Shown: positions 10,649 through 54,035 of the stretch, piece by piece | Position numbering within the stretch: position 1 is the stretch's first letter | Layout of the letters: each line of letters begins with the position of its first letter | Notes under the pieces: generated by a model | Seen by the model: only the letters and a program-made list of their open reading frames with translations | Database searches by the model: none | What the model was told of the DNA's origin: nothing | Program-made: the position numbers and the translations under genes | From: an uncultured Thermoleophilia bacterium | Lineage (GTDB): Bacteria > Actinomycetota > Thermoleophilia > UBA2241 | Reading direction: 5' to 3' | DNA: 64,000 bases | Assembly: GCA_963751215.1 (NCBI GenBank) | Contig: CAVVTV010000025.1 | Span: forward strand, 130,665 to 194,664

Positions 10649-11827
10649 ATGAGCACCAGACACACCGAGAAGCCACCTGCGCCGCTGGGGTACGGCCCCC
10701 CACGGACTCGTCTCGCCTTACGTCTGGCGCTCGTCTACGCCGCCGTGGCGTCGCTGTGGATACTCCTCTCCGACTCGGCCCTCGACGCACTGGGGCTGCC
10801 GCTGTCTGTGGAGCAGGAGCTCTCATCCCTTAAAGGCCTGGGTTTTGTGCTGGTCACGGCGGTGGTGCTCTATGTCTTCGTGAGCCGCTGGGTGAGGAGG
10901 CTGCGCGCGTCGCAGGAGCGGTACTGGCGCCTGTTCGAGAACGCCACCGAGGGCATCACCGTCTTCACCGTGGTGCGCGACCGGCAGGGCGCGCTGACCG
11001 ACCTTGTCGTTACCGACGTAAACTCCATCCAGCTAGAGCGCACCCAGCTCACGCGCGACCAGGTGGTCGGTCGCCGGATGACGCAGCAGCACGGCCCCGA
11101 CGAGCGCCTGCGCTCGTACTTCGATCTCGTCGCCAGCGCCGTGGCCGCGGGGCACCCCATAGAGTCTGAGCTGCGCGTGAGGTCGGTCGGAGCTCACGAG
11201 CTGCTCTCGGCGTATCCGTTCGAGCACGACCTGTGGGCGCTGGCCGCCCTGGACGTCACCCAGACACGCCGCGCCGAAGAGGATCTGCGCAAGCAGGAGG
11301 AGCACATCCGGCAGGCATACGTGGATGTGCTCGACGCGGTCACCGGCGGCAAGCTCATCCTCCTCACCGAGGAGGACCTGGCGGCCGAGCTCGGGGTGCC
11401 GCTCTGCATCCCTGCGCAGATCACCTCCGCGAAGCAGATGCCCGAGGCGCGCCGCCGCGTTTCGAAGGCGGCCCGGCAGAGTTTCCCCGGATGGACAGAG
11501 CTCACAGACCTTCTCAACCCCGCTTGTGAGGCCCTCGGCAACGCGCTCAAGCATGGCCACGGCGGAACCTACCAGGTGTACGCGAAGGACGGTCGCCTGC
11601 AGGTGGCGGTCAGCGACGATGGGCCGGGCATCGACTTCCGCACCCTGCCCAGGGCCGCGCTGGTGCCCGGCTTCTCCACCGCCGCGAGCCTGGGCATGGG
11701 CTTCACGATCATGCTCCAGCTCTGCGACCGCGTGCTCCTCAGCACGCGACCGGGGCGCACCGAGATCGTGCTCGAGGTGGCGGCCGGCAGCGCGGCCGCG
11801 CTGGAGATCGTCACGGCGCTCGCCTAG
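10649..11827 (+). CDS. Membrane-anchored PAS sensor protein with a C-terminal histidine-kinase-like ATPase (HATPase_c/RsbW-like) domain
   Basis: Two N-terminal TM helices are followed by a PAS-like segment (RYWRLFENATEGITVFTVVRDRQGALTDLVVTDVN). The C-terminus has N/G-box-like motifs (NALKHGHGG...VSDDGPGIDF...GMGFTIM). No H-box was recognised. Confidence 0.65.
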   Translation: MSTRHTEKPPAPLGYGPPRTRLALRLALVYAAVASLWILLSDSALDALGLPLSVEQELSSLKGLGFVLVTAVVLYVFVSRWVRRLRASQERYWRLFENATEGITVFTVVRDRQGALTDLVVTDVNSIQLERTQLTRDQVVGRRMTQQHGPDERLRSYFDLVASAVAAGHPIESELRVRSVGAHELLSAYPFEHDLWALAALDVTQTRRAEEDLRKQEEHIRQAYVDVLDAVTGGKLILLTEEDLAAELGVPLCIPAQITSAKQMPEARRRVSKAARQSFPGWTELTDLLNPACEALGNALKHGHGGTYQVYAKDGRLQVAVSDDGPGIDFRTLPRAALVPGFSTAASLGMGFTIMLQLCDRVLLSTRPGRTEIVLEVAAGSAAALEIVTALA

Positions 11828-11847: not shown

Positions 11848-12948
11848 ATGAACGCTCAACCTCGACCAGGGAGCTCCTCGCGGAGCCGGCGGCCCGGCGC
11901 CGGCGCGCTCCGCCTGCGCCGCGGCGCGGCGCGCACCCGCCTTGTGGGACGCCTGGGGCTGGCCCGGGCACGCGGCCGGCCTCACACGTTGAGCCACCTG
12001 GTCACCGGCCGCTGCAACGGCCGCTGCCGCACCTGCCTCTGGCGCGACCCCGGCCGTGACGAGCTCGACACGGCGACGGTCAGGTGGCTCTATCGCGAGG
12101 CCGGTAGAGCTGGCCTCGCACAGCTCGTGATGTGGGGTGGCGAGCCACTGCTCCGGCAGGATCTGCCGGAGCTCTTGCGCGCCGCCCGGCACGCCGGCCT
12201 GCTCACCACCCTCATCACCAACGGCTGGCTCATCGGCAAGCGTTGGCCCGAGTTGCGCGGTCATGTGGACGCGCTCATCCTCAGCCTCGACGACGTGGGT
12301 CCCGCCCACGACCGTTTGCGCGGCCTGCCCGGCCTCTACGAACGCCTGCAAGCCTTCGTCGACATGCTGGCCGACGACCCGCTACGCCCGACCCTGCTCG
12401 TGAACACCGTGCTCTCCAATCTCAACCGTGGGGCTTTGGAGCGCGTTGCGGCGGTGGCCGCGGACTGGCACGCGGGTCTGTACTTCTGCCCTATGGAGAC
12501 GGGCGCGGCGACCTCCGCCGGCATCGTGACGCCGCTCGCCGAGCTGGCGCTCTCGCCCGCGCAGCTGAGCGCCGTGGCCGGCACCGCGGCGGAGCTCAAG
12601 CGCGCTGGCTACCCCATCCTCGCCACCGCCGAGTACCTGGATCTGCTCGCCCGCGACCCGGATCTGCAGGGCTACACGTGCCGGGCGCCGGCCGCGCGGC
12701 TCACAGTGGCCGCCGACGGCACGGTGCGCGACTGCCTGCATAGCGACCGCCCGCTGGCCGACGTGGCCGCCCTGCGGGCCGCCCACGAGCCCCTCTCGCT
12801 GCTGTTCTCTCAGCCCCGATACCGTGCCATGACGGCGCAGGCGACGCACTGCCGCAAGTGCAACAACCCAGATGTCATCGAGCTGTCGTGGCTCTGGGAC
12901 CTGCGGCCGGCGATGCTTCGCAAAGTGCTGCAACTCAGCACCCTGTAG
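11848..12948 (+). CDS. Radical SAM enzyme with a C-terminal SPASM/twitch-like Cys-rich domain
   Basis: It has the CNGRCRTC (Cx3Cx2C) motif and GGEPLL, plus C-terminal cysteines (CRAPAARLTVAADGTVRDC...HCRKCNNPD). It is not HydE- or HydG-like in length or motifs. Confidence 0.75.
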   Translation: MNAQPRPGSSSRSRRPGAGALRLRRGAARTRLVGRLGLARARGRPHTLSHLVTGRCNGRCRTCLWRDPGRDELDTATVRWLYREAGRAGLAQLVMWGGEPLLRQDLPELLRAARHAGLLTTLITNGWLIGKRWPELRGHVDALILSLDDVGPAHDRLRGLPGLYERLQAFVDMLADDPLRPTLLVNTVLSNLNRGALERVAAVAADWHAGLYFCPMETGAATSAGIVTPLAELALSPAQLSAVAGTAAELKRAGYPILATAEYLDLLARDPDLQGYTCRAPAARLTVAADGTVRDCLHSDRPLADVAALRAAHEPLSLLFSQPRYRAMTAQATHCRKCNNPDVIELSWLWDLRPAMLRKVLQLSTL

Positions 12949-14634: not shown

Positions 14635-15930
14635 CTAGGCCGGGCCGAGGTGCCTGCGGCGCAGCTCCTCCAGCTGCTTGGGGGAGAGAAACACGCAGTC
14701 ACCCCTGGCCGCCTCACCGGCGGCGACATCGTGGGCCAGCACCCGGCAACTGGGCGCGCCGCAGAGCCCGCAGTCCAGTCCCGGCAGGGTACCCGCGATG
14801 CGTTCCGCCTCCTTCACCCGCCGCACCCTCTCGCGCAGATCGCCCACCTTGGTGGTCGCGCGAGGCTCGAACGGACGCTCGGTGGAGTAGTCTTCTTGCG
14901 GGTAGCGACGCCACACCTCGGCCTCGGTCTCGAGGTCGGTCTCGGGGAGCTCCCTCACCAGGCTCTGCATCTTGGCCTGCGTCACGTAGAGGTTGTCGAC
15001 CGTAAGATTGCCGTTGGCGCAGCCGCCCCAGCAGGCGCTGCACTCCAGGAAGTCTATGTCTTTGAGCTTGCCCTTCTCGATGTCGTCGAAGACGCGCATC
15101 ACGTTGGGCAGCCCCGTCACCGACAGGTAGCGGTACCTGCTGAGCGTGCCGGCCAGCGGGCGTCGCGTAGACCAGCGCAGCATCCCCGCGGAACGCACGG
15201 GCGCCCAGGCGCAGTGAACGCCGGACTTCGCGACCCTACGCGCCCGGGCCAGCACCGTGTTGTACACCTGCGGAATGCCGATGGACCCGTCCAGGTAGCT
15301 CTTGCCACCTTCGGCCGGCTGCATGATGGAGACGGTCCGTGCCTGGCAGGGCGTGACGTAGATGGCGGCCACGTCTTCGGGCGCCACACCGCGCTCCAGC
15401 GCGAAGCGCCGCTTGACCTCGCGCCCGGCGATCTCGCGCGGAGGGTGCACGCGAATGAGCTGCTCCAGCATCCGCGGGTACGAGACCTGCATGAGCCGCA
15501 CCACCACGGGGCAGGTGATGGAGATGATGGGCCGCGGGCCACGCCAGGAGCCCACGAAATCGACGATCGCACGCGTCACGAGCTTCATCTCAACGCCGTA
15601 GTCCCACACGCTGTCGAAGCCCACGGCGAGCAGCCCCTCGGCGATGTGCTCAGGCCGTATCTCGCGCGGAAACTGGCCGAAGAGCACCGGCGAGGGCACC
15701 GCCACCTTGAGCGCGAAATGGTTGAACTCGTCCAGGGTCCGCGTGGTCGCCGTGATCGCCCCGCGCGAGCACGCGGTAAGGCACGAGCCGCAGTCGATGC
15801 ACAGCTCGCTCAGCACGCGCGCCTTGCCGTGCTTCACGCGAATCGCAAACGTGGGGCAGACCCGCATGCAAGCCAGGCAGCCGTTGCACACCGCGTCGGC
15901 TATGCGGAATCCATGCGTGTACTCAGCCAT
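14635..15930 (-). CDS. HydS-like putative sensory [FeFe]-hydrogenase homologue. It lacks a PAS domain and is the last gene of the redox operon.
   Basis: Two N-terminal ferredoxin-type motifs (CNGCLACMRVCP, CIDCGSCLTACS). The H-cluster-domain motifs are present in modified form: L1 ITCP has a single Cys where the proton-relay Cys of TSCCP is replaced, L2 is TPCQ, and L3 is ECSACWGGCANG. A C-terminal Cx2Cx4Cx16C motif (CGLCGAPSC-16-C) matches what is described for Thermotoga HydS. Confidence 0.75.
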   Translation of the reverse strand: MAEYTHGFRIADAVCNGCLACMRVCPTFAIRVKHGKARVLSELCIDCGSCLTACSRGAITATTRTLDEFNHFALKVAVPSPVLFGQFPREIRPEHIAEGLLAVGFDSVWDYGVEMKLVTRAIVDFVGSWRGPRPIISITCPVVVRLMQVSYPRMLEQLIRVHPPREIAGREVKRRFALERGVAPEDVAAIYVTPCQARTVSIMQPAEGGKSYLDGSIGIPQVYNTVLARARRVAKSGVHCAWAPVRSAGMLRWSTRRPLAGTLSRYRYLSVTGLPNVMRVFDDIEKGKLKDIDFLECSACWGGCANGNLTVDNLYVTQAKMQSLVRELPETDLETEAEVWRRYPQEDYSTERPFEPRATTKVGDLRERVRRVKEAERIAGTLPGLDCGLCGAPSCRVLAHDVAAGEAARGDCVFLSPKQLEELRRRHLGPA

Positions 15931-16363
15931 GCTCGTCCAGCTTGATCTTGCAGGTCACGACGGTGCCCTCACCTAGCTCTGAGCGGATACCGAACACGTC
16001 GGAGTTCTTCTGCACATTGGGCAGACCCATGCCGAAGCCGAAGCCCATCTCGCGCATCTCGTCGCTGGCGCTCGACCATCCCTCCTGCATGGCAAGCTCG
16101 AGGTCGGGGATGCCCGGGCCGTGGTCGGCCATCTCGATGCCGATGTCTTCGTCTGTGATCGCCAGGGTGAGCACCCCCTCGCGGGCGTACATCACCACGT
16201 TCATCTCGACCTCGAAGGCCACCACCACGGCGCGGCGGATGGTCTGCGGGTCGATCTCCAGGTCTTTGAGCAGCGTCTTGATCTCGGTCGACGTCTCGCC
16301 CGCCTTGTCGAAATCGAGGCCGTTCACCCGGTAGCAGCACGAGAGCAGCTCCTCGGCCATCAC
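15923..16363 (-). CDS. Histidine-kinase-like ATPase (anti-sigma-factor/RsbW-type HATPase_c) protein
   Basis: 146 aa with HGPGIPDLE...GFGFGMGLPNV G-box-like motifs. It shows ATGA-type overlaps with both neighbours. Confidence 0.8.
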   Translation of the reverse strand: MMAEELLSCCYRVNGLDFDKAGETSTEIKTLLKDLEIDPQTIRRAVVVAFEVEMNVVMYAREGVLTLAITDEDIGIEMADHGPGIPDLELAMQEGWSSASDEMREMGFGFGMGLPNVQKNSDVFGIRSELGEGTVVTCKIKLDEHG

Positions 16364-16701
16364 ATCGCCCCGTGCAGGCCGGCGACGTACAGGATGCCGC
16401 AGCTCTCGAACATGCCGAGGCAGGTCATGAGCACCGGGATGCCCTTCTCACGAGCGAGCTCTAGCACGCGCTCGGGCGGACGCTTGCCGCGCACGTACAC
16501 GATGGCGTGCACATCGGCCACCACGGCGGTGCGCACCGACTGGATGTTGGTGAGCCCGGTGAGCATCAAGGCGTGAGGCCGGTGAAAGGCGAGGATCTCG
16601 CTCATGCCGTCGGAGGCCACCACGGCCTCTATATCCACCTCGTGGTCGAGCGTCGTGAGCGGCTCGCAACACAGAGCCGCGGCGATCTCGTTCAGCCTCA
16701 T
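16360..16701 (-). CDS. DRTGG domain protein
   Basis: 113 aa with LMLTGLTNIQSVRTAVVADVHAIVYVRGK...GIPVLMT, typical of the DRTGG (CBS-associated) domain. Its start overlaps the NfnB-like stop (ATGA). Confidence 0.75.
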   Translation of the reverse strand: MRLNEIAAALCCEPLTTLDHEVDIEAVVASDGMSEILAFHRPHALMLTGLTNIQSVRTAVVADVHAIVYVRGKRPPERVLELAREKGIPVLMTCLGMFESCGILYVAGLHGAM

Positions 16702-18131
16702 GGCCGGCAGCCTCCTTCGCGATCAGGCACGCGCCTGCGCAGCGCCGCGTCGATCGACAGCGCCGCCCGGCGCCCGGCGCCCATGGCACTGATGACCGTG
16801 GCTGCGCCGGTAACCACGTCTCCGCCGGCCCAGATATGCTCGCGTGACGTACGCCCGGTCTCTTCGTCAGCCACAATGGTACCGCGCGGGCCCACCTCCA
16901 GGCCCGGGGTCGTCGCGGGAATCAGCGGGTTGGGGCTGTTGCCGATGGCGCACACCGAGGCGTCTACAGACATCATGAACTCGGAGCCCGCGATCTCTAT
17001 GGGCCGGCGGCGGCCGGAGGCATCGGGAGTACCCAGCTCCATGCGGCGGCACTCCATGGCGCGCAGCCAGCCCCGGTCGTCGCCGATGAGGCGCACCGGC
17101 AAGGTGAGGAAGTCGAAGATCACGCCCTCCTCCTCGGCGTTCTCCACCTCCTCGAGGCGCGCCGGAAGCTCGTCGCGGCTGCGCCGGTACACGATGTGTA
17201 CCTCCTCGGCGCCCAGACGCAGCGCGGTGCGGGCCGAGTCCATGGCCACGTTGCCGCCGCCGAACACGGCCACCTTCGCCGCCCGCTTGAGCGGCGTGTC
17301 CCAGGCGGGAAAGCGAAAGCCGCGCATGAGGTTGCAGCGCGTGAGGTACTCGTTCGCGGAGTACACGCCGTTCAGGTTCTCCCCCGGGATCTCGAGAAAC
17401 CACGGCAGGCCGGCGCCGGCGCCCACGAACGCCGCGTCGAACGATTCGAGCAACCGGTCGAGGGTGCGTGTCTTGCCGGCCACGAAGTCAAGGCGCAGCT
17501 CCACCCCCAGGCTGCGCACGTAGTCGATCTCGCGGCGCACGATGGCCTTTGGCAGGCGAAACTCCGGGATGCCGTAGGTGAGCACGCCTCCCGCCTCGTG
17601 CAGAGCCTCGAACACGGTCACCTGGTACCCCTGCCCGGCGAGGTCGGCGGCCACCGTAATGCCGGCCGGTCCCGAGCCGACCACGGCCACCCGGCGGCCG
17701 TTGGCGGGCGGCTGCGGGGGCGGCTGCGCCGCCCCCTCGGCCGCCTCCCAGTCGGCCAGGAAGCGTTCCAGACGGCCGATGGCGAGCGGCTCCCCCTTCT
17801 TGCCCAGCAAGCAGAGCTTCTCGCACTGCTCCTCCTGCGGACACACGCGGCCGCAGACCGCCGGCAGCGCGTTGGTCTCCTTGACCTTCTTGATGCCGGT
17901 CGCGAAGTCTCCCTCGGCGATGCAGGCGACGAAAGCCGAGATGTCGACGCCCACCGGGCAGCCCTGGCTGCAAGCGGGCTTCTTGCAGGCCAGGCAGCGC
18001 GCCGCCTCCTCCCGCGCGAGCTCGGGCGAGTAGCCCAGCGCCACCTCGTCGAAGTTGCGCACACGCGCGCCCGGCTCCTGCTTCGGCATGGGCCGTCTGG
18101 CCGTTCTGATTCTGCCGCCCACTCGCGTCAT
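16698..18131 (-). CDS. GltD/SudA/NfnB-like subunit: NAD(P)H-binding, FAD, two [4Fe-4S] clusters
   Basis: CLACKKPACSQGCPVGVD and CGRVCPQEEQCEKLC Fe-S motifs, and two GxGxxG folds (VAVVGSGPAGITVA, VAVFGGGNVAMDSA). Start chosen at M42 of the ORF, which sits 4 nt after the NfnA-like stop. Confidence 0.85.
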   Translation of the reverse strand: MTRVGGRIRTARRPMPKQEPGARVRNFDEVALGYSPELAREEAARCLACKKPACSQGCPVGVDISAFVACIAEGDFATGIKKVKETNALPAVCGRVCPQEEQCEKLCLLGKKGEPLAIGRLERFLADWEAAEGAAQPPPQPPANGRRVAVVGSGPAGITVAADLAGQGYQVTVFEALHEAGGVLTYGIPEFRLPKAIVRREIDYVRSLGVELRLDFVAGKTRTLDRLLESFDAAFVGAGAGLPWFLEIPGENLNGVYSANEYLTRCNLMRGFRFPAWDTPLKRAAKVAVFGGGNVAMDSARTALRLGAEEVHIVYRRSRDELPARLEEVENAEEEGVIFDFLTLPVRLIGDDRGWLRAMECRRMELGTPDASGRRRPIEIAGSEFMMSVDASVCAIGNSPNPLIPATTPGLEVGPRGTIVADEETGRTSREHIWAGGDVVTGAATVISAMGAGRRAALSIDAALRRRVPDREGGCRP

Positions 18132-18135: not shown

Positions 18136-18969
18136 TCAGAAGTGAGACGCGCACCCGCTGCGCCGAAGAGGTTCGACCTCCTCCGGATTGTAGGTCTCTC
18201 GCCGCGCCAGGAACTCTTCCCAGTCCACCTCGTGGCCGTTGAACTCGGGGCCATCGACGCAGGCGAACCTGGTCTTGCCGGCCACCGTCAGGCGGCACAC
18301 CCCGCACATGCCCGTGCCGTCGATCATGATTGGGTTCATGCTCACGATCGTCGTGATGCCCAGGGGCCGAGTCTGCTCGCAGACCTTCATCATCTGGAAG
18401 GTGCACCCATGGGCGACGATGCGCTCCGGGTGAAGGTCTTCGAGCGCCAGGATCTCGGCCAGGCGCGTCACGTGCCCTTTGTAGCCCCGGCTGCCGTCGC
18501 GGGTGACCGTGATCACGCGCTCGGCGACACCGCGCAGCCGGTCTTCCCAGTACAAGAGATAGGCGCTACGCGCCTCCACGAGCACCACCACGCGGTTGCC
18601 GGCCGCCGCCATGGCGGCGGCGACGGGCTGGATACTGCCGATCCCGTAGCAGCCGCCGATGAGCAGCACCGTGCCGAAGTGCTCCACCACGGTCGCATTG
18701 CCCAGGGGACCGGCATACGACGGGATCTCGTCGCCGGCGTGCAGGCGCGCAAGCCGACCCGTGGAGGCGCCGACCTGCACGAAGATGGAGGTAACGGTTC
18801 CGGCGGCGGCGTCCCAGTCGGCCAGGGTGAGCGGAATGCGCTCGCCGCCCTCTCCCGGTCGCAGGATGATGAAGTTGCCGGGCCGCGCTGACTCGGCCAC
18901 CTCGGGCGCGTCCACGGTGAGCAGGTGCACGTTGGGCACGATCATGCGGCGTTCAACGACCCGGACCAT
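18136..18969 (-). CDS. SudB/NfnA/PyrK-like subunit: FAD plus C-terminal [2Fe-2S]
   Basis: Ferredoxin-NADP-reductase-like fold (MVRVVERRMIVPNVHLLTVDAPE...) ending in GTGMCGVCRLTVAGKTRFACVDGPEF, a Cys4 [2Fe-2S] motif. An alternative ATG lies at 18945. Confidence 0.8.
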   Translation of the reverse strand: MVRVVERRMIVPNVHLLTVDAPEVAESARPGNFIILRPGEGGERIPLTLADWDAAAGTVTSIFVQVGASTGRLARLHAGDEIPSYAGPLGNATVVEHFGTVLLIGGCYGIGSIQPVAAAMAAAGNRVVVLVEARSAYLLYWEDRLRGVAERVITVTRDGSRGYKGHVTRLAEILALEDLHPERIVAHGCTFQMMKVCEQTRPLGITTIVSMNPIMIDGTGMCGVCRLTVAGKTRFACVDGPEFNGHEVDWEEFLARRETYNPEEVEPLRRSGCASHF

Positions 18970-21496
18970 GCTCCCTCCCCGAGTGAGTGGAGGATCGCCG
19001 GCGCCGGCCGGCGCCGGTGGCCCGCGCGCGCTCGCCGGCCCGGGCGTGCTCGCCGGCGCGCAGACGCACCTTCTGCGGTCCCGCCGGGCCCGGCCACCAA
19101 CGCGGCAGCACCATATACACAACGCCCCGCGGACAGTCGCGATCGGGGCGCGCAACGAGCACGAGATCGCGCTCCGCCAAGCCGACCGTCACAAGACCGT
19201 CCGGCGCCGCGCCGAGGCGCGCCAGGTCGTCTGGGTGAATGCGCAGCCCCTCCTCGAGGCGCAGCTCTCCGAGGCCCTCGACAACGCCGGCCAGATCGAC
19301 ACCGCGGTGAGCGAACGCCGTGCGCTCGGCCACCAGAACGTAGCGCCGCCCGCGGCGCGCGGTGTCTTGCGCCGGCTCCGCCGCCCTGCCGGCCGGCGCG
19401 CTCGCCACGGCCGGCGCGGTCATCCGGGCCGCTTCGCCGGCCGCCCCCAGCGGCACCATGCGGCGCGGCGCGCGGTCGCGCTCGGCGGGAAAGGCCGGCA
19501 CCTCGGCGCGCATGGCCTCTCGCACGGCGCCGGCGTCGCGGTACTGCAAAGCGGGGTGTCCCAAGCACGCCGCGAGGCTCGAGAAGATCCACCAGTCGGG
19601 CTGCGCAGCCTTGCTCGCGCCGCACGCGCGCAGCCGCTCGAGGCCGCACACCTCCTGCACCCGGCCCTCGAGGTTGGTCAGAGTGCCGTCGGCCTCCGCA
19701 AACGAGGCCGCGGGCAGAAACGCATCCACGGCAAAGGGTGGCAGGTACATGTCTTGGGCGATCACGTAGTCACAGTCGGGGCGTGTCGCGAACGGCGCTG
19801 CCCCGACGAGGTACAGCACCCTCGGGCAACGGCCCGCGCGGAGCTGCGCCAGGTCGAAGCCCCGGTTCGCCACGCGCGAGCCCGCCCCTGCTCGCGGGCT
19901 CGGCGCCGCCCGCGGACCGGGCCACACCTCACTCAGCCCGCCGAGCTCCAGCACGCCACGCGTATTGGCGCCATTCACCAGCGGCAAGACGCTCGTGCCC
20001 TCACGCGTGGCCACGCTCTCCAGCTTGGCCACCAGCTCCGCCGCCCCCGCGCCGGCGAAGACCCGCGGCCCCACCACCACAGCCAGCGGGGCGCCCTCCA
20101 CCGTACCCAGGGTCTCCGTCAGGGCGATGGCCTCGCTACCCGCCGCAGGACGCAGCCAGCGGTCGGCCGCCCGGGCAAGGTTCGACTCGCGAGCATCTAC
20201 CACCACCAGGCGCGCGCCATCACGCAGCGCGCGCCTGACCTGCACCCCGACCACCGAGAACGAGAACCGCGAGTCGAGCCCCGCGACCACCACCGTGGCC
20301 GCCCGACGAACCGCCAGTATGGACACGGGCAGCGCGAACAGGCGCGACCACAGATGCACGCCACCGGCAAGGTCGTCGCGGGCGGTGGAGTCGACGCCGC
20401 CGCGCAGACCTGCTCGCACCAGTCGTTGGGCCGCATACACCGCCTCGTTCGTGAGATCGCCGGAGACCAGCATCAGCAGCTCCTCCGGGGCCACGTCGGC
20501 CAGCCTCGCGCTCACCTCCGCGAGGACCTCGTCCCAGCTTGTGACGCGCAAGCTGGCGCCACGACGCAGCATGGGCTCACGGGCGCGGGAATGATGGTGG
20601 GTCACTTCCGGCAGGCAGAAGCGCCCTCGCACGCAGAGCTGGCCGTCGTTCAGGGCCGCGTCGCGCGCGCCGCTCACCGACGAAAGACGGCCGTCTCGGT
20701 GAGCCAGCCGCACACGGCAGCCGAGGCTGCAGAACGGGCAGGTGGAAATCTCCTGGCCGTCGGGCGTGCCGTCCCACTTGGACACCTTGTCGGCGAGCGC
20801 CCCCGTGGGGCACACCGAGACGCAGGCCCCGCAGAACTCGCAGCCGGCCTGCGCGTGCGAATCACCGAAGGCCGGCCCCACCAGCGTCTTGGGGCCGCGG
20901 TACTTGAAAGCGAGCACCGCGGCCCCCCGCACCTCCTGGCACATGCGCACGCAGCGACCGCACAGGATGCAAAGGTTGTAGTCGCGGTCGAAGAACGGGT
21001 CGTCGTGCTCCACGCTCAGCCCCAGGTAGGAGATGGGGTAGGGGATGCCGGCCACGCCGACGTGGTCCGCGACCACCTGCAACTCGCAGTCGCCGTCTTT
21101 GGGACAGTTGCCGCACCCGGTAGAGACTCCGGCCTTGCGGATCGTCTTCTGGGTGCGCCGGCACTCCTCCCTCTCGTCGCAGACCAGACAACTGGAGGGG
21201 TGCTTGGAGAGGATGAGCTGAAGGATCTCGCGGCGCATCTCGCGCAGGGTCACCGTGTCGGTCGTCACTCGCATGCCCTCGGCAGCCAGCGTGCTGCAGG
21301 CCAGCGGGTAGCCGCGCAGGCCCGAGATCTCGACCATGCACAGGCGGCAGGCGCCGAACGGTGAGAGCTCCTCGTGAGAGCAAAGGGACGGCACATATGC
21401 TCCGGCGAGCTCCGCGGCGCGCAACACGGTGACTCCCTCCGGCACCGAGACGAGGCGATGATCGACCGTCAGATGCAGACGGGTCTCAGAGCCCAT
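18953..21496 (-). CDS. NuoG/FdhA-like Fe-S subunit with a molybdopterin-oxidoreductase (MopB) domain that appears non-catalytic
   Basis: Start at ORF residue 190 (MGSETRLHLTVDHRLVSVPEGVTVL). It has an N-terminal 2Fe-2S ferredoxin fold, a His/Cys cluster, two 4Fe-4S motifs, a MopB Cys motif (STCPFCSLGCRV...C) and a C-terminal molybdopterin-dinucleotide-binding barrel (IHPDDLARLGAAPDGLVTV). At the position aligned by eye to the FDH active site (CCARVUHGP) it reads STARDDLAGGV, so there is no Cys/Sec and no His. There is no in-frame TGA. Confidence 0.8.
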   Translation of the reverse strand: MGSETRLHLTVDHRLVSVPEGVTVLRAAELAGAYVPSLCSHEELSPFGACRLCMVEISGLRGYPLACSTLAAEGMRVTTDTVTLREMRREILQLILSKHPSSCLVCDEREECRRTQKTIRKAGVSTGCGNCPKDGDCELQVVADHVGVAGIPYPISYLGLSVEHDDPFFDRDYNLCILCGRCVRMCQEVRGAAVLAFKYRGPKTLVGPAFGDSHAQAGCEFCGACVSVCPTGALADKVSKWDGTPDGQEISTCPFCSLGCRVRLAHRDGRLSSVSGARDAALNDGQLCVRGRFCLPEVTHHHSRAREPMLRRGASLRVTSWDEVLAEVSARLADVAPEELLMLVSGDLTNEAVYAAQRLVRAGLRGGVDSTARDDLAGGVHLWSRLFALPVSILAVRRAATVVVAGLDSRFSFSVVGVQVRRALRDGARLVVVDARESNLARAADRWLRPAAGSEAIALTETLGTVEGAPLAVVVGPRVFAGAGAAELVAKLESVATREGTSVLPLVNGANTRGVLELGGLSEVWPGPRAAPSPRAGAGSRVANRGFDLAQLRAGRCPRVLYLVGAAPFATRPDCDYVIAQDMYLPPFAVDAFLPAASFAEADGTLTNLEGRVQEVCGLERLRACGASKAAQPDWWIFSSLAACLGHPALQYRDAGAVREAMRAEVPAFPAERDRAPRRMVPLGAAGEAARMTAPAVASAPAGRAAEPAQDTARRGRRYVLVAERTAFAHRGVDLAGVVEGLGELRLEEGLRIHPDDLARLGAAPDGLVTVGLAERDLVLVARPDRDCPRGVVYMVLPRWWPGPAGPQKVRLRAGEHARAGERARATGAGRRRRSSTHSGREHGPGR

Positions 21497-23396
21497 CAGA
21501 CGCTCCCGACTCAATGCGGATGGCGTCGCCGGCGACGGCGTCGAAACGGCAGATCTCGTAGCAGGAGCGGCACTTGATGCACTTCTCCGGGTCGAGATTG
21601 TGAACCTCGGCGCGTGGTCCAGTGATGGCTCCGGTAGGGCACACCTGCACGCAGCGCTGGCAGCCGGTGCACCGCTCAGGCATGATCCGGTACACGACGA
21701 GATCACGGCAGACCGCCGCCCGGCAGCGTCTCTCGACGATGTGCTCCACGAACTCGGCGCGGAAGTACTTGAGCGACGAGAGCACCGGGTTGGGCGCCGT
21801 CTGCCCGAGGCCGCAGAGGGAGCTGGCCTTGACCACACCGGCGAGCTTCTCGAGACGCGCGAGGTCGGTGAGCTGCGCCTCGCCGGAGCAGATCGCCGTG
21901 AGAATCTCTGCGAGGTGCCCGGTGCCGATGCGACACGGCACGCACTTGCCACATGATTCATCTTGGGTGAAGCCGAGGAAGTAGCGCGCCATGTCGACCA
22001 TGCACGTGTCGCGGTCGAGCACGATGAGCCCGCCCGAGCCCATGATGGAGCCGGCCGCGGCAAGGCTCTCGTAGTCGATGGGGATGTCGAGAAACTCCTC
22101 CCCGAGGCAGCCCCCCGACGGGCCCCCGGTTTGCACGGCCTTGAAGTCTTTGGCGAGCCCGCCGCCGATATCGTAGACCACCTGGCGCAGCGTCATGCCG
22201 AACGGGATCTCTATGAGTCCCGTGCGGCGCACCTTGCCGACCAGGCTGAAGGTCTTCGTGCCCTTCGACGTCTCGGTGCCGAAGCTCGCATACCACTCGG
22301 GCCCGCGGGCGAGGATCGCCGGCAGGGTCGCGAGCGTTTCCACGTTGTCGATAATCGTGGGCTCGCCGTGCAGACCTGCGACGGCGGGAAACGGGGGCCG
22401 CGTGCGCGGCATCCCGCGACGACCCTCGAGGCTCGCGATGAGAGCCGTCTCTTCACCGCAGACAAAGGCTCCCGCCCCTTCCTGGAGGCTGATGTCGAAC
22501 GAGAAGTCGCTGCCCAGGATCCTGTCGCCGAGCAGGCCGAGCTTGCGCATGGCGGCCAGCGCCGAGCGCAGGCGCTGGATCGCCAGCGGGTACTCGGCCC
22601 TGATGTAGATATGACCGTGTGCGGCGCCGATGGCGTAGCCGGCGATCAGCATGCCCTCGAGCACCTCGTGCGGGTCGCCCTCGATGAGGGAGCGGTTCAT
22701 GAAGGCGCCGGGGTCGCCCTCGTCGGCGTTGCAGATGAGGTGGCGCGCGTCGCTCTCGGTCTGCCGGCAGAAGGTCCATTTCTGCCAGGTAGGAAAGCCC
22801 GCCCCTCCACGGCCGCGCAACCCCGCGCGCCGAACGGCGTCGATCACGTCCTGCCACGGCATGTCGAGGCAGTGCGCGAACGCCGCATACCCGCCCCGGG
22901 CCAGATAGTGATCGATCTGCTCGGGATCGATGATGCCGCAGTTGCGCAGCACGATGCGCTTCTGGCGACTGAGCATCGGGTGGTCCGCGAGACTCGGTAC
23001 GCCGGCGCCATCGTACCCGCCGGCGCCCTCGTACTCGCCATCGCCAAGGTACCCCACGAGATGCCGCCGAGGCACCTCACCGCCGCGCAGAGCGTCGAGC
23101 GTGTCGGCGGCCAGGTCGCCCGTCATGTTGGAGTAGCTCAGACGAGGCCTGCCGGGGAGCTGCACGTCAAGGAGCGGCTCCAGGTAGCAGAGCCCCAGGC
23201 AGCCGACCGCCACGATCTCGGCGTCGACCTGCCGTTCCTCTAGATACCGGCGCACCCCGGCGAGCACCTCCAGGGCGCCCGCCGCCAGCCCGCACGACCC
23301 CATGCCGAGATAGACGACCGGGCGCCCGCTGGACGTGAGAGCCCGCCAGCGCGCTCCGGCTCTACGGCGGCGACGGTCAAGGGCGGGGGCGAGCAT
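21486..23396 (-). CDS. NuoF/HydB-like flavoprotein subunit: NAD(H)-binding, FMN, Fe-S; N-terminal thioredoxin-like 2Fe-2S and C-terminal 2x[4Fe-4S] extensions
   Basis: GAGAFVCGEETALIASLEGRRG is the FMN/NADH site. An N-terminal NuoE-like domain is present (GMGSCGLAAG...VGCLGLCYLEP). The C-terminal Cys motifs are CTGCQRCVQVCP and CIKCRSCYEICR. This architecture is as in HydB/HndC-type subunits. Confidence 0.9.
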   Translation of the reverse strand: MLAPALDRRRRRAGARWRALTSSGRPVVYLGMGSCGLAAGALEVLAGVRRYLEERQVDAEIVAVGCLGLCYLEPLLDVQLPGRPRLSYSNMTGDLAADTLDALRGGEVPRRHLVGYLGDGEYEGAGGYDGAGVPSLADHPMLSRQKRIVLRNCGIIDPEQIDHYLARGGYAAFAHCLDMPWQDVIDAVRRAGLRGRGGAGFPTWQKWTFCRQTESDARHLICNADEGDPGAFMNRSLIEGDPHEVLEGMLIAGYAIGAAHGHIYIRAEYPLAIQRLRSALAAMRKLGLLGDRILGSDFSFDISLQEGAGAFVCGEETALIASLEGRRGMPRTRPPFPAVAGLHGEPTIIDNVETLATLPAILARGPEWYASFGTETSKGTKTFSLVGKVRRTGLIEIPFGMTLRQVVYDIGGGLAKDFKAVQTGGPSGGCLGEEFLDIPIDYESLAAAGSIMGSGGLIVLDRDTCMVDMARYFLGFTQDESCGKCVPCRIGTGHLAEILTAICSGEAQLTDLARLEKLAGVVKASSLCGLGQTAPNPVLSSLKYFRAEFVEHIVERRCRAAVCRDLVVYRIMPERCTGCQRCVQVCPTGAITGPRAEVHNLDPEKCIKCRSCYEICRFDAVAGDAIRIESGASDGL

Positions 23397-23880
23397 CTAG
23401 CACCCCCTGGAGCTTGAGCACACTCATCTGCCCATAGATGATGTCGTCCAGCGTGATCACCGGGGCCAGGGCGCAGCACCCGAGGCAGGCCACGCGCTCC
23501 AGGTCGAACTCCCCGTCGGACGTGGTCTCGCCGGCCTCCACACCCAGCCTGCGCGCGGCCGTGTCGAGCATCTGCACACCCCCCTTGACGTGGCAGGCTG
23601 TGCCGAGGCAAATACGCAGGCGATGACGGCCGGGCGGGCAGAAGCGAAACTGCGAGTAGAAGGTGGCGACGCCGAAGACCTCGCCCTCCGACATCCGCAA
23701 CCAGCGCGCGATGCGCCGCACCGCGTCCGGCGAGAGATACCCGAGAGCCGCCTGCGCCTTCTGCAGCGCCGGCACGAGATCCGCGCGATGGCCGGCGAAC
23801 CCGCGCATGATGCCCGGCCAGGGATCGCCGTGTGACGACCCGCCCCGGGCGCCGGCCGGCTCTCGAGCCGACGCCTCCAT
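23377..23880 (-). CDS. NuoE/HydC-like thioredoxin-like [2Fe-2S] subunit
   Basis: CLGTACHVKGG...CLGCCALAPV is the Cys4 NuoE motif. The gene overlaps the nuoF-like start by 20 nt. Confidence 0.85.
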   Translation of the reverse strand: MEASAREPAGARGGSSHGDPWPGIMRGFAGHRADLVPALQKAQAALGYLSPDAVRRIARWLRMSEGEVFGVATFYSQFRFCPPGRHRLRICLGTACHVKGGVQMLDTAARRLGVEAGETTSDGEFDLERVACLGCCALAPVITLDDIIYGQMSVLKLQGVLDARPRP

Positions 23881-23889: not shown

Positions 23890-24228
23890 CTACCTCAGGC
23901 CGAGCTCGACCAGGCGCACGGCGTACGACCAGGTGTCGTCCATGGTTGTGAAGAGCGCGATGCCCACTCTGTCGGCGAGGCTCACGACATCGTCGGCCGG
24001 ACGCTTGTCGTGGGCGAACACGACCATGGCGGCATCGACCACGTTGGCCGCCGCGATGAGGTTCTTATGCGTCTGTAGAGTCACCAGTAGGCTGCCGCTC
24101 TGAGCACCCGTGATGATGTCCGACGCCATGTCGGACACATACACCCCCGAGACGTCGGCATCTTCCTGCACATTGAGCGCTTCGAGCCCTGTTCTCTCGA
24201 CGATCTCGGAGATTCTCACGGTGCCCAC
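23890..24228 (-). CDS. DRTGG domain protein (second copy)
   Basis: 112 aa with LLVTLQTHKNLIAAANVVDAAMVVFAHDKRPADDVVSLADRVGIALFTT, similar to the 16360-16701 product. Confidence 0.7.
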   Translation of the reverse strand: MGTVRISEIVERTGLEALNVQEDADVSGVYVSDMASDIITGAQSGSLLVTLQTHKNLIAAANVVDAAMVVFAHDKRPADDVVSLADRVGIALFTTMDDTWSYAVRLVELGLR

Positions 24229-24258: not shown

Positions 24259-24777
24259 TTACAGCTCTGTGAGCCCAGCGTCGGCGATGACGACGCCCGC
24301 GCAGCAGTCGATGTCGCTGCACATGCTGCACGGCACTACCACGATCTTCTTGTGCGCCGAGCGCAGGCGCTGGTTGAAGTACTCGCCCAGCGCCGCGACC
24401 CCCTCGTCGCTCACACAGTGACCCGCGGAGTGGCTAGAGTCGGCACAGAGTGCCACGTAGACCGAGGTGCCCTTGCCCATCTCGAGAGCCATGCAGCCGA
24501 CTTGGCACTCGGGGTCTTCGCAGGTCGACAGCATGAGACCCGTCATGTCGCTGAGGTCGACCACCGTGCCGCAGATCTCGCAGCGCAGGCCGAAGGCGAC
24601 CGCCTGAGAGCTTGAGAGGTACCTCCACATGTGCTCACCCTGACGGTACTCGTCCATGGGCGCGGCCGGTTCCGTGGAGAAGAACGAGCCGCGGGCGCCG
24701 CAGTGGTAGCAGCCTTCGACGACCAGATACCCGCTGCGGACGTTGGTCATCGACCAGTGATGGGGGCAGGTGCTCAT
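24259..24777 (-). CDS. Cys-rich protein of unknown function (14 Cys in 172 aa), first gene of the redox operon
   Basis: The ATG at 24777 is preceded by GGAGGA. It carries CxxC pairs (CYHC, CEIC), CEDPECQVGC, and CSMCSDIDCC. No family was recognised. Confidence 0.5.
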   Translation of the reverse strand: MSTCPHHWSMTNVRSGYLVVEGCYHCGARGSFFSTEPAAPMDEYRQGEHMWRYLSSSQAVAFGLRCEICGTVVDLSDMTGLMLSTCEDPECQVGCMALEMGKGTSVYVALCADSSHSAGHCVSDEGVAALGEYFNQRLRSAHKKIVVVPCSMCSDIDCCAGVVIADAGLTEL

Positions 24778-25274
24778 ACGTCCTCCAGTCCCGGGTGGCC
24801 GCGCGCAGCGAGGATCGTGCGAGAAGAAACGGGAGTGCCCGCGGCCTCCCAAAGCCGCAGCCTGCCGCTGGCGCGCCACCGCCGCGTAGCTAGCCGCGAC
24901 GGCATGGCGTCGAAAGAGAGCAAACGTGACGTCTCGTCCACAGCTCCTCCGCCCTTGCTTTGCGAGCCCCGGACCCAAGGGCCAAGTCGAGTCCCGATAC
25001 CATAGTACCACCGGCCCATCGCCGCGGGGCGACAAATCCCCGCTGCCTGGGCGATCGCATGACGCCGCGCTCTGCGCAGGCGCATCGGGTTGCATTCGCG
25101 GCCGAGTTGGGGTTAAATCGCCCCGGATCTACACAGAAGAGGCGCCCCGACGCCTCGCCCCGCTGCAGGTTCGTCCCTTTCCCTTTTGTGTGACGGTCAT
25201 GCCGTGCGGTTGGCGAGCGCCCGGGCGCGGACCGCCCGCCGGGCACAGGCACATGCCGCTGCCCTGCCGGGATA

Positions 25275-25994
25275 GTGCGTCGGAAGGATGTTGTGCGGAG
25301 CAGAACCCTACTCACAATCGCTGCCCTGGCCACGATCGCTGCCGCGGCACACGCCCCCTCGGCCGGGGCCTCCCCCCTCACTACACACCAGATGCAGACC
25401 CATCTCCAGCAAGCCAAGTCACGCTTGCGCCTTGCTCGCCGGCACTCCTCTCAGGCGGCCGTCAACGCCGCCGGCGCCCGCGCCTTGCAGGCCCTCACCC
25501 CATCCGCGACCCCCGTCACTCCGCCCCCGGGTATGGACCAGGCGCTCGCCGCCCAGCTCCTGGCCGATGGCGTGGTGACCGCCGACGAAGTCGCCACCGT
25601 TCAGGCCCGTGCCGACCAGCTCAAGGGCGGCGTGCACGTCTGGGCGCGGCGCGTACGTGGCCTCGGCAGACGCCTGCGGCACGTGCAGCGCATCAGCGAC
25701 TGGGCACGCCGCGGAACCTGGAAGCCACTGATCGCCATCGCCGCACGTGAGTACGGTGTGAGCCAGACCGGCCTGTACCGGATGATGATGTTCGAGTCTG
25801 GCGGCCGGCGCTACGCAGGCACAGCCTACAAGGGGCTGTTCCAGTACTGCCCGAGCACCTGGGCGGCTTCGTGGAACCCCTGGCGCTGCGAGAGCGTCTT
25901 CAACGGCTGGGCGCAGATCAGGGCCACCGCCCTCGCCGTCAGCAGGGGCATGGGCCCGAGCCAGTGGCCCAACACGTACCCCAGGGCGTTCTGA
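25275..25994 (+). CDS. Secreted protein with a C-terminal Rpf/lytic-transglycosylase-like domain
   Basis: A signal-peptide-like N-terminus (LLTIAALATIAAAAHA; likely GTG start near 25293) is followed by MMFESGGRRYAGTAYKGLFQYCPSTWAA, which resembles the transglycosylase-like ESGG...GLFQ...TW motif. Confidence 0.6.
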   Translation: MRRKDVVRSRTLLTIAALATIAAAAHAPSAGASPLTTHQMQTHLQQAKSRLRLARRHSSQAAVNAAGARALQALTPSATPVTPPPGMDQALAAQLLADGVVTADEVATVQARADQLKGGVHVWARRVRGLGRRLRHVQRISDWARRGTWKPLIAIAAREYGVSQTGLYRMMMFESGGRRYAGTAYKGLFQYCPSTWAASWNPWRCESVFNGWAQIRATALAVSRGMGPSQWPNTYPRAF

Positions 25995-26013
25995 AGGCCG
26001 ATCTAGAGAAGTC

Positions 26014-26061
26014 GACGAGCCGGGGCGGGCGGTCCACTAGTGACCGCCCGCCCCGGCTCGT
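26014..26061. terminator. Perfect 20-bp GC-rich stem (ACGAGCCGGGGCGGGCGGTC-cactagt-GACCGCCCGCCCCGGCTCGT) between convergent genes
   Basis: The inverted repeat is seen directly in the sequence. Confidence 0.55.
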
Positions 26062-26142
26062 CGTGCCGCCCGCCGGCCGTCTGCGCCAGCGGTGCGCGCC
26101 AGCGGTGCTCGCCACGGCCCTGGAGCCTATCCCCGTAGGCTC

Positions 26143-26382
26143 CTAACGCTTCACCAGATAGACCCCGTCGAGGCGCGTGACGACCTTGACCGCCGCGTTC
26201 AGCTGGATCACGGCCTTCTTCAGCCCGGCGACGATCGTCGCCGGCTTCGCGTTTCCTTCCACGCGGGCGCTCTCGTACCCGGCATCGCCGAACTCCCGCA
26301 CCATCTCTACGTACTTGCCGGTGGCTCGCGAAGCGCGTGGCGGCAAGGGGGCCGGCACCAGCTTCAGTTTGCGTTCTGCCAT
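26143..26382 (-). CDS. Small hypothetical protein (~79 aa)
   Basis: ATG at 26382 with AGGAGG 8 nt upstream. GC3 is high. No family was recognised. Confidence 0.4.
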   Translation of the reverse strand: MAERKLKLVPAPLPPRASRATGKYVEMVREFGDAGYESARVEGNAKPATIVAGLKKAVIQLNAAVKVVTRLDGVYLVKR

Positions 26383-26672: not shown

Positions 26673-27236
<564 letters not shown>

Positions 27237-53581: not shown

Positions 53582-53590
53582 ACTAGCTTC

Positions 53591-54034: not shown

Positions 54035-54035
54035 T

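Follow-up and report, generated by a model that had tools for sequence, protein, structure and literature searches.

The M2e, or group D, [FeFe]-hydrogenases are distinguished by the lack of a PAS domain, a non-conserved C299, replacement of M353 by Ser or Thr and a C-terminal Cx2Cx4Cx16C motif (PMC8163306; for the PAS-less definition also PMC3561251), and in the passage of PMC3561251 that cites Calusinska et al. this architecture is one classified before 2012. The PAS-less architecture as such is not new; it is that of a class already described. TamHydS, the group D member of Thermoanaerobacter mathranii, has been studied biochemically since 2019-2020 (PMC8163306, PMC10407848, PMC13104023). 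It binds [2Fe]adt and turns over H2 with low activity and high H2 affinity (PMC8163306), its H2 evolution being about a thousand-fold slower than that of prototypical group A enzymes (PMC11803613), and residues E252, E289, S249 and D265 have been assigned to the group D proton pathway (PMC10407848). For the entire class the term "sensory" is still only putative; the C-terminal cluster of TamHydS is unresponsive to H2, no partner has been demonstrated by experiment, and the signal output of group D enzymes and its recipient were left as an open question in the 2026 TamHydS study (PMC13104023).

The DNA analysed here (the window) is a 64-kb stretch of 69% GC from a Thermoleophilia (Actinomycetota) MAG. 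A ten-gene operon on its minus strand was found to encode a NuoEFG-like, predicted bifurcating core, NfnS/NfnL and a HydS module, with no catalytic hydrogenase. The genes, and the motifs within the hydS-like gene, are as follows.

14635..15930, minus strand: HydS-like [FeFe]-hydrogenase homologue, probably group D/M2e, 431 aa (Pfam Fer4, Fe_hyd_lg_C and FeS; TamHydS alignment; Foldseek)
14695..14772, minus strand: C-terminal Cx2Cx4Cx16C [4Fe-4S] motif, C387x2C390x4C395x16C412 (PF04060; Pfam, translation, relatives)
15019..15045, minus strand: L3 "ECSACWGGC" (residues 296-304), with E296, S298 (CpI M497) and ligands C300 and C304
15337..15354, minus strand: L2 "TPCQAR" (193-198), with T193 (CpI M353), ligand C195 and R198 (CpI K358)
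15508..15522, minus strand: L1 "SITCP" (137-141), with T139 at the proton-relay Cys site (CpI C299) and H-cluster ligand C140
15769..15888, minus strand: two ferredoxin-type [4Fe-4S] motifs, C15x2C18x2C21x3C25 and C44x2C47x2C50x3C54 (translation)
15923..16363, minus strand: stand-alone GHKL ATPase, 146 aa, SpoIIAB/anti-sigma-F-like (Pfam HATPase_c)
16360..16701, minus strand: DRTGG-domain protein 1, 113 aa (Pfam DRTGG, 28.5 bits)
16698..18131 (ORF open to 18254), minus strand: NfnL/GltD-like subunit with FAD, NAD(P)H and 2x[4Fe-4S] sites (Pfam Fer4_20 and Pyr_redox_2)
18136..18969, minus strand: NfnS/PyrK-like FAD, [2Fe-2S] subunit (NF004862, 326 bits, over cut-off; DHODB_Fe-S_bind)
18953..21496, minus strand: BfuA/NuoG-FdsA-like Fe-S subunit with a divergent molybdopterin-type domain (Pfam)
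21486..23396, minus strand: BfuB/NuoF-like FMN subunit with a C-terminal 2x[4Fe-4S] domain (Pfam, NCBIfam)
23377..23880, minus strand: BfuC/NuoE-like [2Fe-2S] subunit (NCBIfam)
23890..24228, minus strand: DRTGG-domain protein 2, 112 aa, a weak match (Pfam DRTGG, E 1.7e-4, 21.8 bits, under cut-off)
24259..24777, minus strand: Cys-rich protein, 172 aa, of a family without a name, first gene of the operon (exact NCBI protein P0396)

The hydS-like ORF starts with ATG, has a GC3 of 0.88-0.89 and showed dN/dS values of 0.16-0.30 against its relatives. Pfam placed a Fer4 dicluster at residues 11-60, Fe_hyd_lg_C (PF02906) at residues 77-307 (E 5.6e-22, 79 bits versus a cut-off of 22.1) and FeS (PF04060) at residues 382-414 (E 7.7e-11). 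The original prediction had read two N-terminal ferredoxin-like clusters, all H-cluster motifs, a single-Cys L1 (ITCP) with loss of the proton-relay Cys, and a C-terminal Cx2Cx4Cx16C followed by no PAS domain; Pfam and our motif reading agreed on the clusters and H-cluster motifs, T139 occupies the relay position, C387, C390, C395 and C412 form the exact C-terminal pattern, and Pfam gave no PAS match in the 431 residues, only 19 of which follow C412. An AF2 model (pLDDT 84, pTM 0.83) was searched against the PDB with Foldseek, and the top 50 matches were all [FeFe]-hydrogenases (prob 1.00, TMq 0.52-0.65). That 14635-15930 encodes a real [FeFe]-hydrogenase-like Fe-S protein is thereby confirmed; taken alone, the protein is an ordinary member of its clade. 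Its synteny and the natural gene fusions described below are likewise shown.

Alignment by phmmer to the solved [FeFe]-hydrogenases 7qv7_D, 7q4v_A and 8a6t_A placed L1, L2 and L3 opposite "TSCCP", "MPCxxK" and "ExMxCxxGC", respectively, so that C140, C195, C300 and C304 correspond to the four H-cluster ligands (CpI C300, C355, C499 and C503), in line with the three H-cluster motifs read in the original prediction. No variation was seen at these four cysteines in sets of 30 and of 74 relatives, and seven of the eight N-terminal cluster cysteines were invariant in the 30 relatives, the eighth, C18, being Cys in 25 of them. At the T139 site Ser is commonest in the clade (S33/T7/M5), and Ala is typical of TmHydS and TamHydS; at the T193 site Thr prevails (T46/A4), and the CN-binding K358 position has K or R in every clade member, R in the window protein. 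Comparison with the group D relay suggested that Tam E252 and D265 are replaced by L259 and T272 and that only E289 (E296 here) is clearly retained, the loop alignment being uncertain; the same uncertainty applies to Tam S249, which falls on R256 by MAFFT or S254 by BLAST. In many clade members a Glu lies two residues earlier in this loop.

The group A enzymes CpI, DdHydAB and HydA of HydABC share with the window protein the H-domain fold and the four ligand cysteines, but in the latter TSCCP reads SITCP, MPCxxK reads TPCQAR and ExMxC reads ECSAC, so that the group A relay Cys and the Met residues at M353 and M497 are represented by T139, T193 and S298; overall identity is about 17-21%, and the small-subunit-like C-terminus is missing. 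SmHydA of group A could be aligned over the N-terminal half only (21% identity), whereas TamHydS aligned over the full length (32% identity, E 3e-80), and a neighbour-joining tree, whose only references were TamHydS (group D) and SmHydA (group A), united TamHydS and all relatives in one group far from group A. The likeness to TamHydS extends to length (431 versus 435 aa), domain order, absence of PAS, the C-terminal Cx2Cx4Cx16C, absence of the relay Cys, a hydroxyl residue at M353, an equivalent of E289 and a common "LTVxN" after L3. The two proteins differ in that, apart from the modest identity, the window protein has Thr for Ala at C299, R for K at K358, and L259 and T272 in place of the relay residues E252 and D265. 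Group C (M2f) members TmHydS and HfsB resemble the window protein in having two N-terminal [4Fe-4S] clusters, an H-domain without the relay Cys and a C-terminal four-Cys cluster, and bifurcating hydrogenase genes lie near them, but they carry a C-terminal PAS domain after the four-Cys cluster (PMC8163306, PMC3561251). The window protein, predicted earlier as "PAS-less HydS-type", matches the published definition of M2e/group D (PMC8163306, PMC3561251), and it is rather probable that it is a group D homologue of the same class as TamHydS acting within a regulatory module; its separation from group C rests on the absent PAS domain, the alignment and tree containing no group C sequence. Longer relatives were considered as possible PAS-bearing group C proteins and rejected, since they were mostly fusions with DRTGG or HATPase domains and none of the 10 long relatives examined, drawn from the best 150 representatives, had a PAS domain.

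The hydS-like gene overlaps the HATPase gene by 8 nt, which in turn is overlapped by the first DRTGG gene by 4 nt, in keeping with the co-operonic arrangement noted previously. The HATPase resembles the anti-sigma serine kinases SpoIIAB and RsbW in size, in having a single GHKL domain without DHp and in its N, G1 and G2 Bergerat boxes ("EaEMNvVmyA", "DxGpGI" and "GFGxGmGLPN"), which were conserved in 75 orthologues. Its best PDB match was SpoIIAB, a weak one (E 1e-3) on which the kinase assignment rests, and its score with the NCBIfam model spIIAB (40.5 bits) was far under the cut-off of 135. Unlike SpoIIAB and RsbW, it has DRTGG proteins as conserved neighbours and no STAS antagonist or sigma factor nearby: neither was found by Pfam scan in the operon or in about 40 other window ORFs, nor does the operon encode a transcription factor. 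The second DRTGG protein is conserved in the operon and has a positional equivalent following hydS in Thermoanaerobacter. The 172-aa Cys-rich protein, with about 12 invariant Cys/His residues, was syntenic in 38 loci; it gave no match in Pfam, NCBIfam or PDB and no fold match.

Across related genomes, an HATPase gene and, directly before it, a DRTGG gene lay immediately upstream of hydS in 72 of the 73 informative loci, and natural fusions of the HydS-DRTGG, DRTGG-HydS and HATPase-HydS types were found; both observations strengthen the earlier suggestion that signal output is delegated to separate proteins. The order DRTGG-HATPase-M2e-DRTGG also occurs in C. bescii and in Thermoanaerobacter, where the M2e protein is 94% identical to TamHydS, and in several genomes (loci L005, L053, L006 and L062) a DRTGG2-DRTGG1-HATPase-HydS unit stands detached from the enzyme genes. 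As in the window, the DRTGG-HATPase...DRTGG genes around TamHydS lie beside a BfuABC-type operon. The window differs from that Firmicute locus in lacking the PHP protein, the second HATPase and HydD, in having the Cys-rich protein and in its partner operon, which is NuoEFG plus NfnSL here and FeFe-HydABC there. A literature search for DRTGG in connection with hydrogenase found nothing relevant.

The original prediction was silent on the NuoEFG-like and NfnS/NfnL enzyme of the operon, whose lack of a hydrogenase is the unusual aspect of the locus. The NuoE-like, NuoF-like (with C-terminal 2x[4Fe-4S]) and NuoG-like subunits that define BfuABC are encoded together, and NfnL scored 566 bits with TIGR01316, over the cut-off. 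Like NfnABC/Stn, NiFe-HydABCSL and FeFe-HydABC of the Bfu family, the enzyme has a NuoE/NuoF/NuoG-like core with a ferredoxin domain at the C-terminus of the NuoF-like subunit, but its NADP(H)-reactive part consists of separate NfnS/NfnL-like subunits and is not fused into BfuA, an arrangement for which we found no name in the Bfu literature (PMC9304861, PMC12018979). BfuABC together with NfnS/NfnL is predicted to be an NADP(H)/NAD(H)/ferredoxin oxidoreductase, probably bifurcating, and not a hydrogenase. The NuoG-like subunit was also considered as a formate dehydrogenase and this was rejected: FdsA (6tg9) covers only its N-terminal half, the next PDB match being A. mobile NiFe-HydA (7t2r); NCBIfam NuoG scored higher than Fdh-alpha, both under cut-off; and the region of the FDH Cys/Sec-His reads "ARDDLAGG" by eye, without formal alignment. 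The module accompanied NuoEFG plus NfnSL in 50 loci of several phyla, NiFe-HydABCSL-type enzymes in 12 and FeFe-HydABC in 2 (Firmicute). The rationale of an H2 sensor regulating a hydrogenase is weakened by the fact that the co-encoded enzyme is not a hydrogenase.

Four [4Fe-4S] clusters are the most likely complement of the HydS-like protein: a pair at the N-terminus, one at the H-site and one C-terminal. If HydEFG is encoded in the genome, a [2Fe] subsite would be added, giving an H-cluster of the slow, sensor kind. Together with the SpoIIAB-like GHKL ATPase/kinase and two DRTGG proteins, and in this clade the Cys-rich protein, the HydS-like protein belongs to a conserved module beside BfuABC-family operons, in which 1) H2, or the redox poise mirrored by it, may alter the state of the H-site and N-terminal clusters, 2) the bound ATPase/kinase and DRTGG proteins may read the conformational change in a partner-switching-like manner, and 3) these proteins may then adjust how active the bifurcating enzyme encoded beside them is, or how it is assembled. 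In this scheme the in vivo loading of cofactors, the role of H2 as signal, the phosphorylation and the target are inferences.

Whether the H-site holds the [2Fe] subsite bears on the foremost alternative, namely that the protein has only a [4Fe-4S] cluster there, as in Narf/Nar1-like proteins, and that it informs the ATPase and DRTGG proteins of the ferredoxin or NAD(P)H redox state and not of H2, thereby tuning the shared BfuBC core. In favour of this, BfuABC is all that the three Bfu types found beside the module have in common, one of them being the non-hydrogenase NfnSL type of the window, and the window protein lacks the relay Cys, E252 and D265. Furthermore, searches with radical-SAM and HydF motifs found no hydE, hydF or hydG and no other hydrogenase, TSCCP-type HydA included, in the 64-kb window, as had been stated for the maturases, or in 80 related loci (about 1.3 Mb). 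Within the window the HydF-like GTPase motif was not found, and Pfam, run on about 40 of some 65 remaining ORF candidates, recognised no hydrogenase or maturase; CxxxCxxC occurred in a single ORF of 250 aa or longer, 11848-12948, which was SPASM/PqqE-like by NCBIfam, not HydE/G. However, hydEFG genes are often unlinked to the structural genes, and their absence nearby is therefore weak evidence. H2 sensing has been doubted for the related HydDB group C1 proteins (PMC11406978), but residues relevant only to a [2Fe] subsite are conserved throughout the clade (K/R at K358, Thr/Ser at M353, S80-P81 and E296), and TamHydS, the characterised relative, both takes up [2Fe]adt and converts H2 (PMC8163306). 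A purely [4Fe-4S] redox sensor is thus unlikely, if still worth weighing.

A catalytic role, in which the N-terminal clusters of the HydS-like protein would attach it to NuoEFG-NfnSL to give an H2-dependent NAD(P)/ferredoxin oxidoreductase, would agree with the single operon and its translational coupling, with the suitability of two [4Fe-4S] clusters for electron transfer and with the recruitment of extra catalytic subunits by type 2/3 Bfu enzymes (PMC9304861). This is very improbable, since HydS also adjoins complete bifurcating hydrogenases of the FeFe and NiFe types, which have no need of another catalytic unit, and H2 evolution by TamHydS is so far below that of group A (PMC11803613). DRTGG and HATPase genes also stand between hydS and the enzyme genes, the module is detached in several genomes, and the window protein has no proton relay.

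GHKL ATPases include chaperones, and the module co-occurs with the shared BfuABC core whatever the third substrate, as would suit an assembly or maturation set in which the ATPase would be the chaperone and Bfu complexes would be built with the help of the hydrogenase-like protein, the DRTGG proteins and the Cys-rich protein, serving as Fe-S scaffolds or escorts. Such a set has a slim chance at best, given that Pfam, NCBIfam and PDB searches brought up no known Fe-S assembly protein, that the H-site pocket is conserved and that other Bfu enzymes have been purified or produced from the ABC genes (PMC12018979).

Returning to the group D regulatory module, it is possible, if doubtful, that the group D protein, the SpoIIAB-like ATPase, the two DRTGG proteins and, in this clade, the Cys-rich metalloprotein form one physical complex that controls the BfuBC core post-translationally, whatever the third substrate. 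If so, group D proteins would not be dedicated hydrogenase regulators, an NADPH-linked transhydrogenase of Actinomycetota, Planctomycetota, Acidobacteriota and further phyla would be gated by H2 or by a redox signal at the ferredoxin level, and interaction partners that the TamHydS field lists as unknown would be named. The SpoIIAB-like ATPase and DRTGG proteins, nearly always adjacent and sometimes fused, are concrete candidates for these partners. The module is not confined to hydrogenase operons, as a large multi-phylum clade has it in the operon of an NADPH-linked, predicted bifurcating enzyme, and this, if confirmed, would recast the physiological role expected of these proteins: they would regulate bifurcating redox hubs and not hydrogenases as such.

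At the borders of the operon, the ORF upstream showed no similarity to the gene upstream of the Thermoanaerobacter module, and no sigma-70 promoter or intrinsic terminator was seen at either end, such scans being uninformative in DNA of this GC content. The Rfam search of the 64-kb window returned a single tRNA.

The reading frame at 14635-15930 (-) started with ATG and encoded 431 amino acids. Its GC content by codon position was that of a genuine gene in this window of 69% GC; dN/dS against four relatives was 0.16-0.30. Pfam assigned three domains to the HydS-like product:

residues 11-60, 4Fe-4S dicluster domain
residues 77-307, Fe_hyd_lg_C (E 5.6e-22)
residues 382-414, PF04060 'FeS' domain (E 7.7e-11)

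The N-terminal clusters were represented by two CxxCxxCxxxC motifs, and the C-terminal motif, C387x2C390x4C395x16C412, was followed by 19 further residues. In phmmer alignments with solved [FeFe]-hydrogenases, loops L1 (SITCP), L2 (TPCQAR) and L3 (ECSACWGGC) matched TSCCP, MPCxxK and ExMxCxxGC, respectively; therefore, the four ligand cysteines are present. In CpI numbering, the proton-relay residue C299 was replaced by Thr139, M353 by Thr193, K358 by Arg198 and M497 by Ser298. All top 50 PDB structural matches to the AlphaFold model (pLDDT 84, pTM 0.83) were [FeFe]-hydrogenases, with probability 1.00. The protein is an [FeFe]-hydrogenase homologue, far beyond chance. The domain order, L1 sequence, four-Cys C-terminal motif and H-cluster loops, together with the missing relay Cys and the absence of a PAS domain, had all been described in the original prediction and were found as described, the Pfam scan detecting no PAS domain.

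By definition, proteins of M2e, or 'group D', have an H-domain preceded by two [4Fe-4S] motifs at the N-terminus and followed by Cx2Cx4Cx16C at the C-terminus; they lack PAS and C299 and carry Ser or Thr for M353, and their genes, which lie upstream of those for a bifurcating hydrogenase, adjoin a histidine-kinase-like ATPase gene (PMC8163306). TTE0887, Athe_1292 and Cthe_0335 had been assigned to the sensory class 'D M2e' by Carere et al. 2012 (PMC3561251). TamHydS, the characterised group D enzyme of Thermoanaerobacter mathranii (sequence from the supplement of PMC6984386), aligned with the HydS-like protein end to end, including the C-terminal domain (32% identity, E 3e-80, 435 vs 431 aa), and the group A enzyme SmHydA aligned over the N-terminal half only (21% identity). 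In a neighbour-joining tree with these two, from groups D and A, as the only references, TamHydS and all collected relatives formed one group, separated from SmHydA by a long branch. Ten long proteins from the 150 best representatives were checked, and none had a PAS domain. The HydS-like protein very probably belongs to group D, and the 'PAS-less HydS-type' interpretation agreed with the class in the literature. This architecture is that of an already named, partly characterised class and is not new; the protein itself, already on record in NCBI, is a new, divergent member, unusual in host lineage and operon context. It had more than 1000 close homologues, the family comprised 266 clusters at 50% identity (E <= 1e-30), and Danish samples had yielded the nearest genomes, those of uncultured Thermoleophilia MAGs, with identities of up to 88%.

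The main value lies in the neighbourhood, less in the gene itself. Ten genes ran from 24777 to 14635, overlapping or with gaps of at most 30 nt, in the following order:

24259-24777 (-), Cys-rich protein, 172 aa
23890-24228, DRTGG-2
third gene, NuoE-like subunit
fourth gene, NuoF-like subunit with C-terminal 2x[4Fe-4S] domain
fifth gene, NuoG/FdsA-like subunit
sixth gene, NfnS (PyrK-like)
seventh gene, NfnL (GltD-like)
16360-16701, DRTGG-1
15923-16363, HATPase, 146 aa
14635-15930 (-), HydS-like protein

Named as in PMC9304861 and PMC12018979, the encoded enzyme is predicted to be a BfuABC core with extra NADP(H)-reactive subunits, and judged by sequence it is not a hydrogenase. The match of the NuoG-like subunit to FdsA was limited to the N-terminal half, and inspection by eye suggested that the catalytic Cys/Sec-His pair appears to be missing. 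Elsewhere in the window, an IorA-like 2-oxoacid:ferredoxin oxidoreductase alpha subunit (42167-44005, -; POR_N, TPP_enzyme_C and Fer4) would suit an anaerobic host whose metabolism depends on ferredoxin.

The predicted co-operonic HATPase and DRTGG genes were well borne out: the HATPase gene overlapped the hydS start by 8 nt and the DRTGG-1 gene by 4 nt, and both genes lay directly upstream of the hydS-like gene in 72 of the 73 related loci whose sequence extended far enough upstream. At a Thermoanaerobacter locus, whose protein was 94% identical to TamHydS, the order was DRTGG, HATPase, M2e, DRTGG, PHP, HydC, HATPase, HydD-like, HydB and HydA, and the same order was found in Caldicellulosiruptor bescii. 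Given the shared DRTGG-HATPase-M2e layout, the module in the window is therefore the one around the characterised TamHydS, except that DRTGG-2, a weak Pfam match, stood at the front of the operon, whereas its Thermoanaerobacter counterpart directly followed M2e. Natural fusions (P0263, P0265, P0284, P0306, P0320, P0393 and P0307) joined a HydS-like protein to DRTGG at the C-terminus in five long representatives, to DRTGG at the N-terminus in one and to an N-terminal HATPase_c in another, all seven being free of PAS; they are the best evidence that the three proteins may cooperate physically, and the HATPase and DRTGG proteins are likely partners of the HydS-like protein. The N, G1 and G2 ATP-binding boxes of the HATPase were kept in 75 orthologues, and its best solved relative, at a weak E of 1e-3, was the anti-sigma-F serine kinase SpoIIAB. 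L009, on a 1.41-Mb contig of an uncultured Actinomycetes MAG, was the only full-flank locus in which the 10 kb around the HydS-like gene (63% identity) contained neither HATPase nor DRTGG nor Bfu genes.

The NuoEFG-NfnSL association recurred in 50 of 80 related loci; among the recorded taxa were Thermoleophilia and further Actinomycetes, Anaerolineae, Phycisphaerae and further Planctomycetota, Acidobacteriota (Aminicenantes among them), Eisenbacteria and Krumholzibacteria. In a clade further off (39-42% identity), the layout resembled that of Thermoanaerobacter and stood before the genes of a bifurcating hydrogenase of the NiFe-HydABCSL type; 12 loci contained a NiFe large subunit. Such loci (L059, L060, L074 and others, from MAGs recorded as Aminicenantes or 'Eubacteriales') carried the module, then PHP, a second HATPase, HydC, HydD-like, HydB (in some cases a fusion with a GltD-like domain), HydA-like, MvhD, NiFe small and large subunits and a protease, a predicted NiFe-HydABCSL-type operon. 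No TSCCP-type HydA was found in any related locus. With the NuoEFG-NfnSL, NiFe-HydABCSL and FeFe-HydABC contexts, the module therefore accompanies three Bfu enzymes that share only the BfuABC core, an association not found in the literature examined. In Hydrogenedentota, many HydDB group C1 genes are not beside hydrogenases and some carry HATPase_C (PMC11406978); we infer that M2e may equal group C1.

In the Cys-rich protein, about 12 Cys/His positions were invariant (C23/C26/C66/C69 plus other conserved Cys and His), and its 261 homologues were of equal length and all annotated 'hypothetical'; no sequence match in Pfam, NCBIfam or PDB and no convincing structural neighbour of its confident AF2 model were found. 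Its gene directly preceded DRTGG-2 in 38 loci and, in six (L005, L053, L006, L062, L027 and L030), travelled with a detached DRTGG2-DRTGG1-HATPase-HydS unit away from the enzyme genes.

The interaction partners of TamHydS were still to be identified in its study (PMC13104023); the module provides candidates that are near-universal for the class and linked to non-hydrogenase bifurcating enzymes. We somewhat favour a group D sensor-type homologue signalling via the ATPase and DRTGG proteins to the bifurcating enzyme. The H-site and N-terminal clusters would respond to H2 or redox poise, the SpoIIAB-like ATPase and DRTGG proteins would bind the HydS-like protein, and they would pass its state on to the co-encoded enzyme. 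Post-translational control is favoured because the operon encodes no DNA-binding protein and module and enzyme genes are translationally coupled across phyla; that it proceeds by phosphorylation-based partner switching is doubtful.

That an H-cluster is present and H2 is the signal has about even chances. For group D, proton pathway residues including E289, E252 and D265 were proposed (PMC10407848). Only E289 was clearly retained (E296), whereas E252 and D265 corresponded to L259 and T272, tentatively, in a gapped loop alignment; in many clade members, a Glu stood two positions before, at a site that was Arg in the protein of the window. The C299 position was Thr here but mostly Ala in TamHydS and the NiFe-linked clade, and among 50 NfnSL-linked members 33 had Ser and 7 had Thr there; the K358 position was K or R throughout the clade. 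These features would fit a very slow, sensor-like site or one no longer handling protons. The missing relay residues and the non-hydrogenase partner would suit a redox sensor free of an H-cluster, but the conserved [2Fe]-pocket-specific residues and the biochemistry of TamHydS make this rather unlikely. A role as the catalytic subunit of a hydrogenase complex is highly improbable, and one within an assembly-factor set marginally more so.

The predicted lack of hydE, hydF and hydG in the window was upheld. Its only radical-SAM gene (11848-12948, +) was SPASM/PqqE-like, its best matches being PTO1314- and SPASM/PqqE-type models, all below cut-off; the window contained no HydF-like GTPase motif, Pfam, run on about 40 of the other approximately 65 ORF candidates, detected no hydrogenase or maturase, and the 80 related loci (approximately 1.3 Mb) held no HydE- or HydG-like ORF. 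The hydEFG genes are frequently unlinked to structural genes. Directly before the radical-SAM gene, on the strand opposite to hydS and some 3 kb away from its stop codon, lay a gene (10649-11827, +) whose 392-aa product carried an RsbW-like HATPase_c_2 domain at its C-terminus.

In the stretch of roughly 2.5 kb that precedes the operon (24800-27300), only weak ORF candidates without family matches were seen (25275-25994, +, with a signal-peptide-like N-terminus; 26143-26421, -), with no Rfam match in this region. Two adjacent genes at 28981-32530 (-), bearing no relation to the hydS finding, encoded large IPT/TIG-domain proteins, the larger also with BNR/PSII_BNR repeats. Finally, a possible acquired island was seen at 52000-58800, a stretch of lower GC (0.63 vs approximately 0.69) that adjoins a tRNA gene (56611-56683, -) and the gene of a DUF4143/AAA_14 ATPase (57426-58805).
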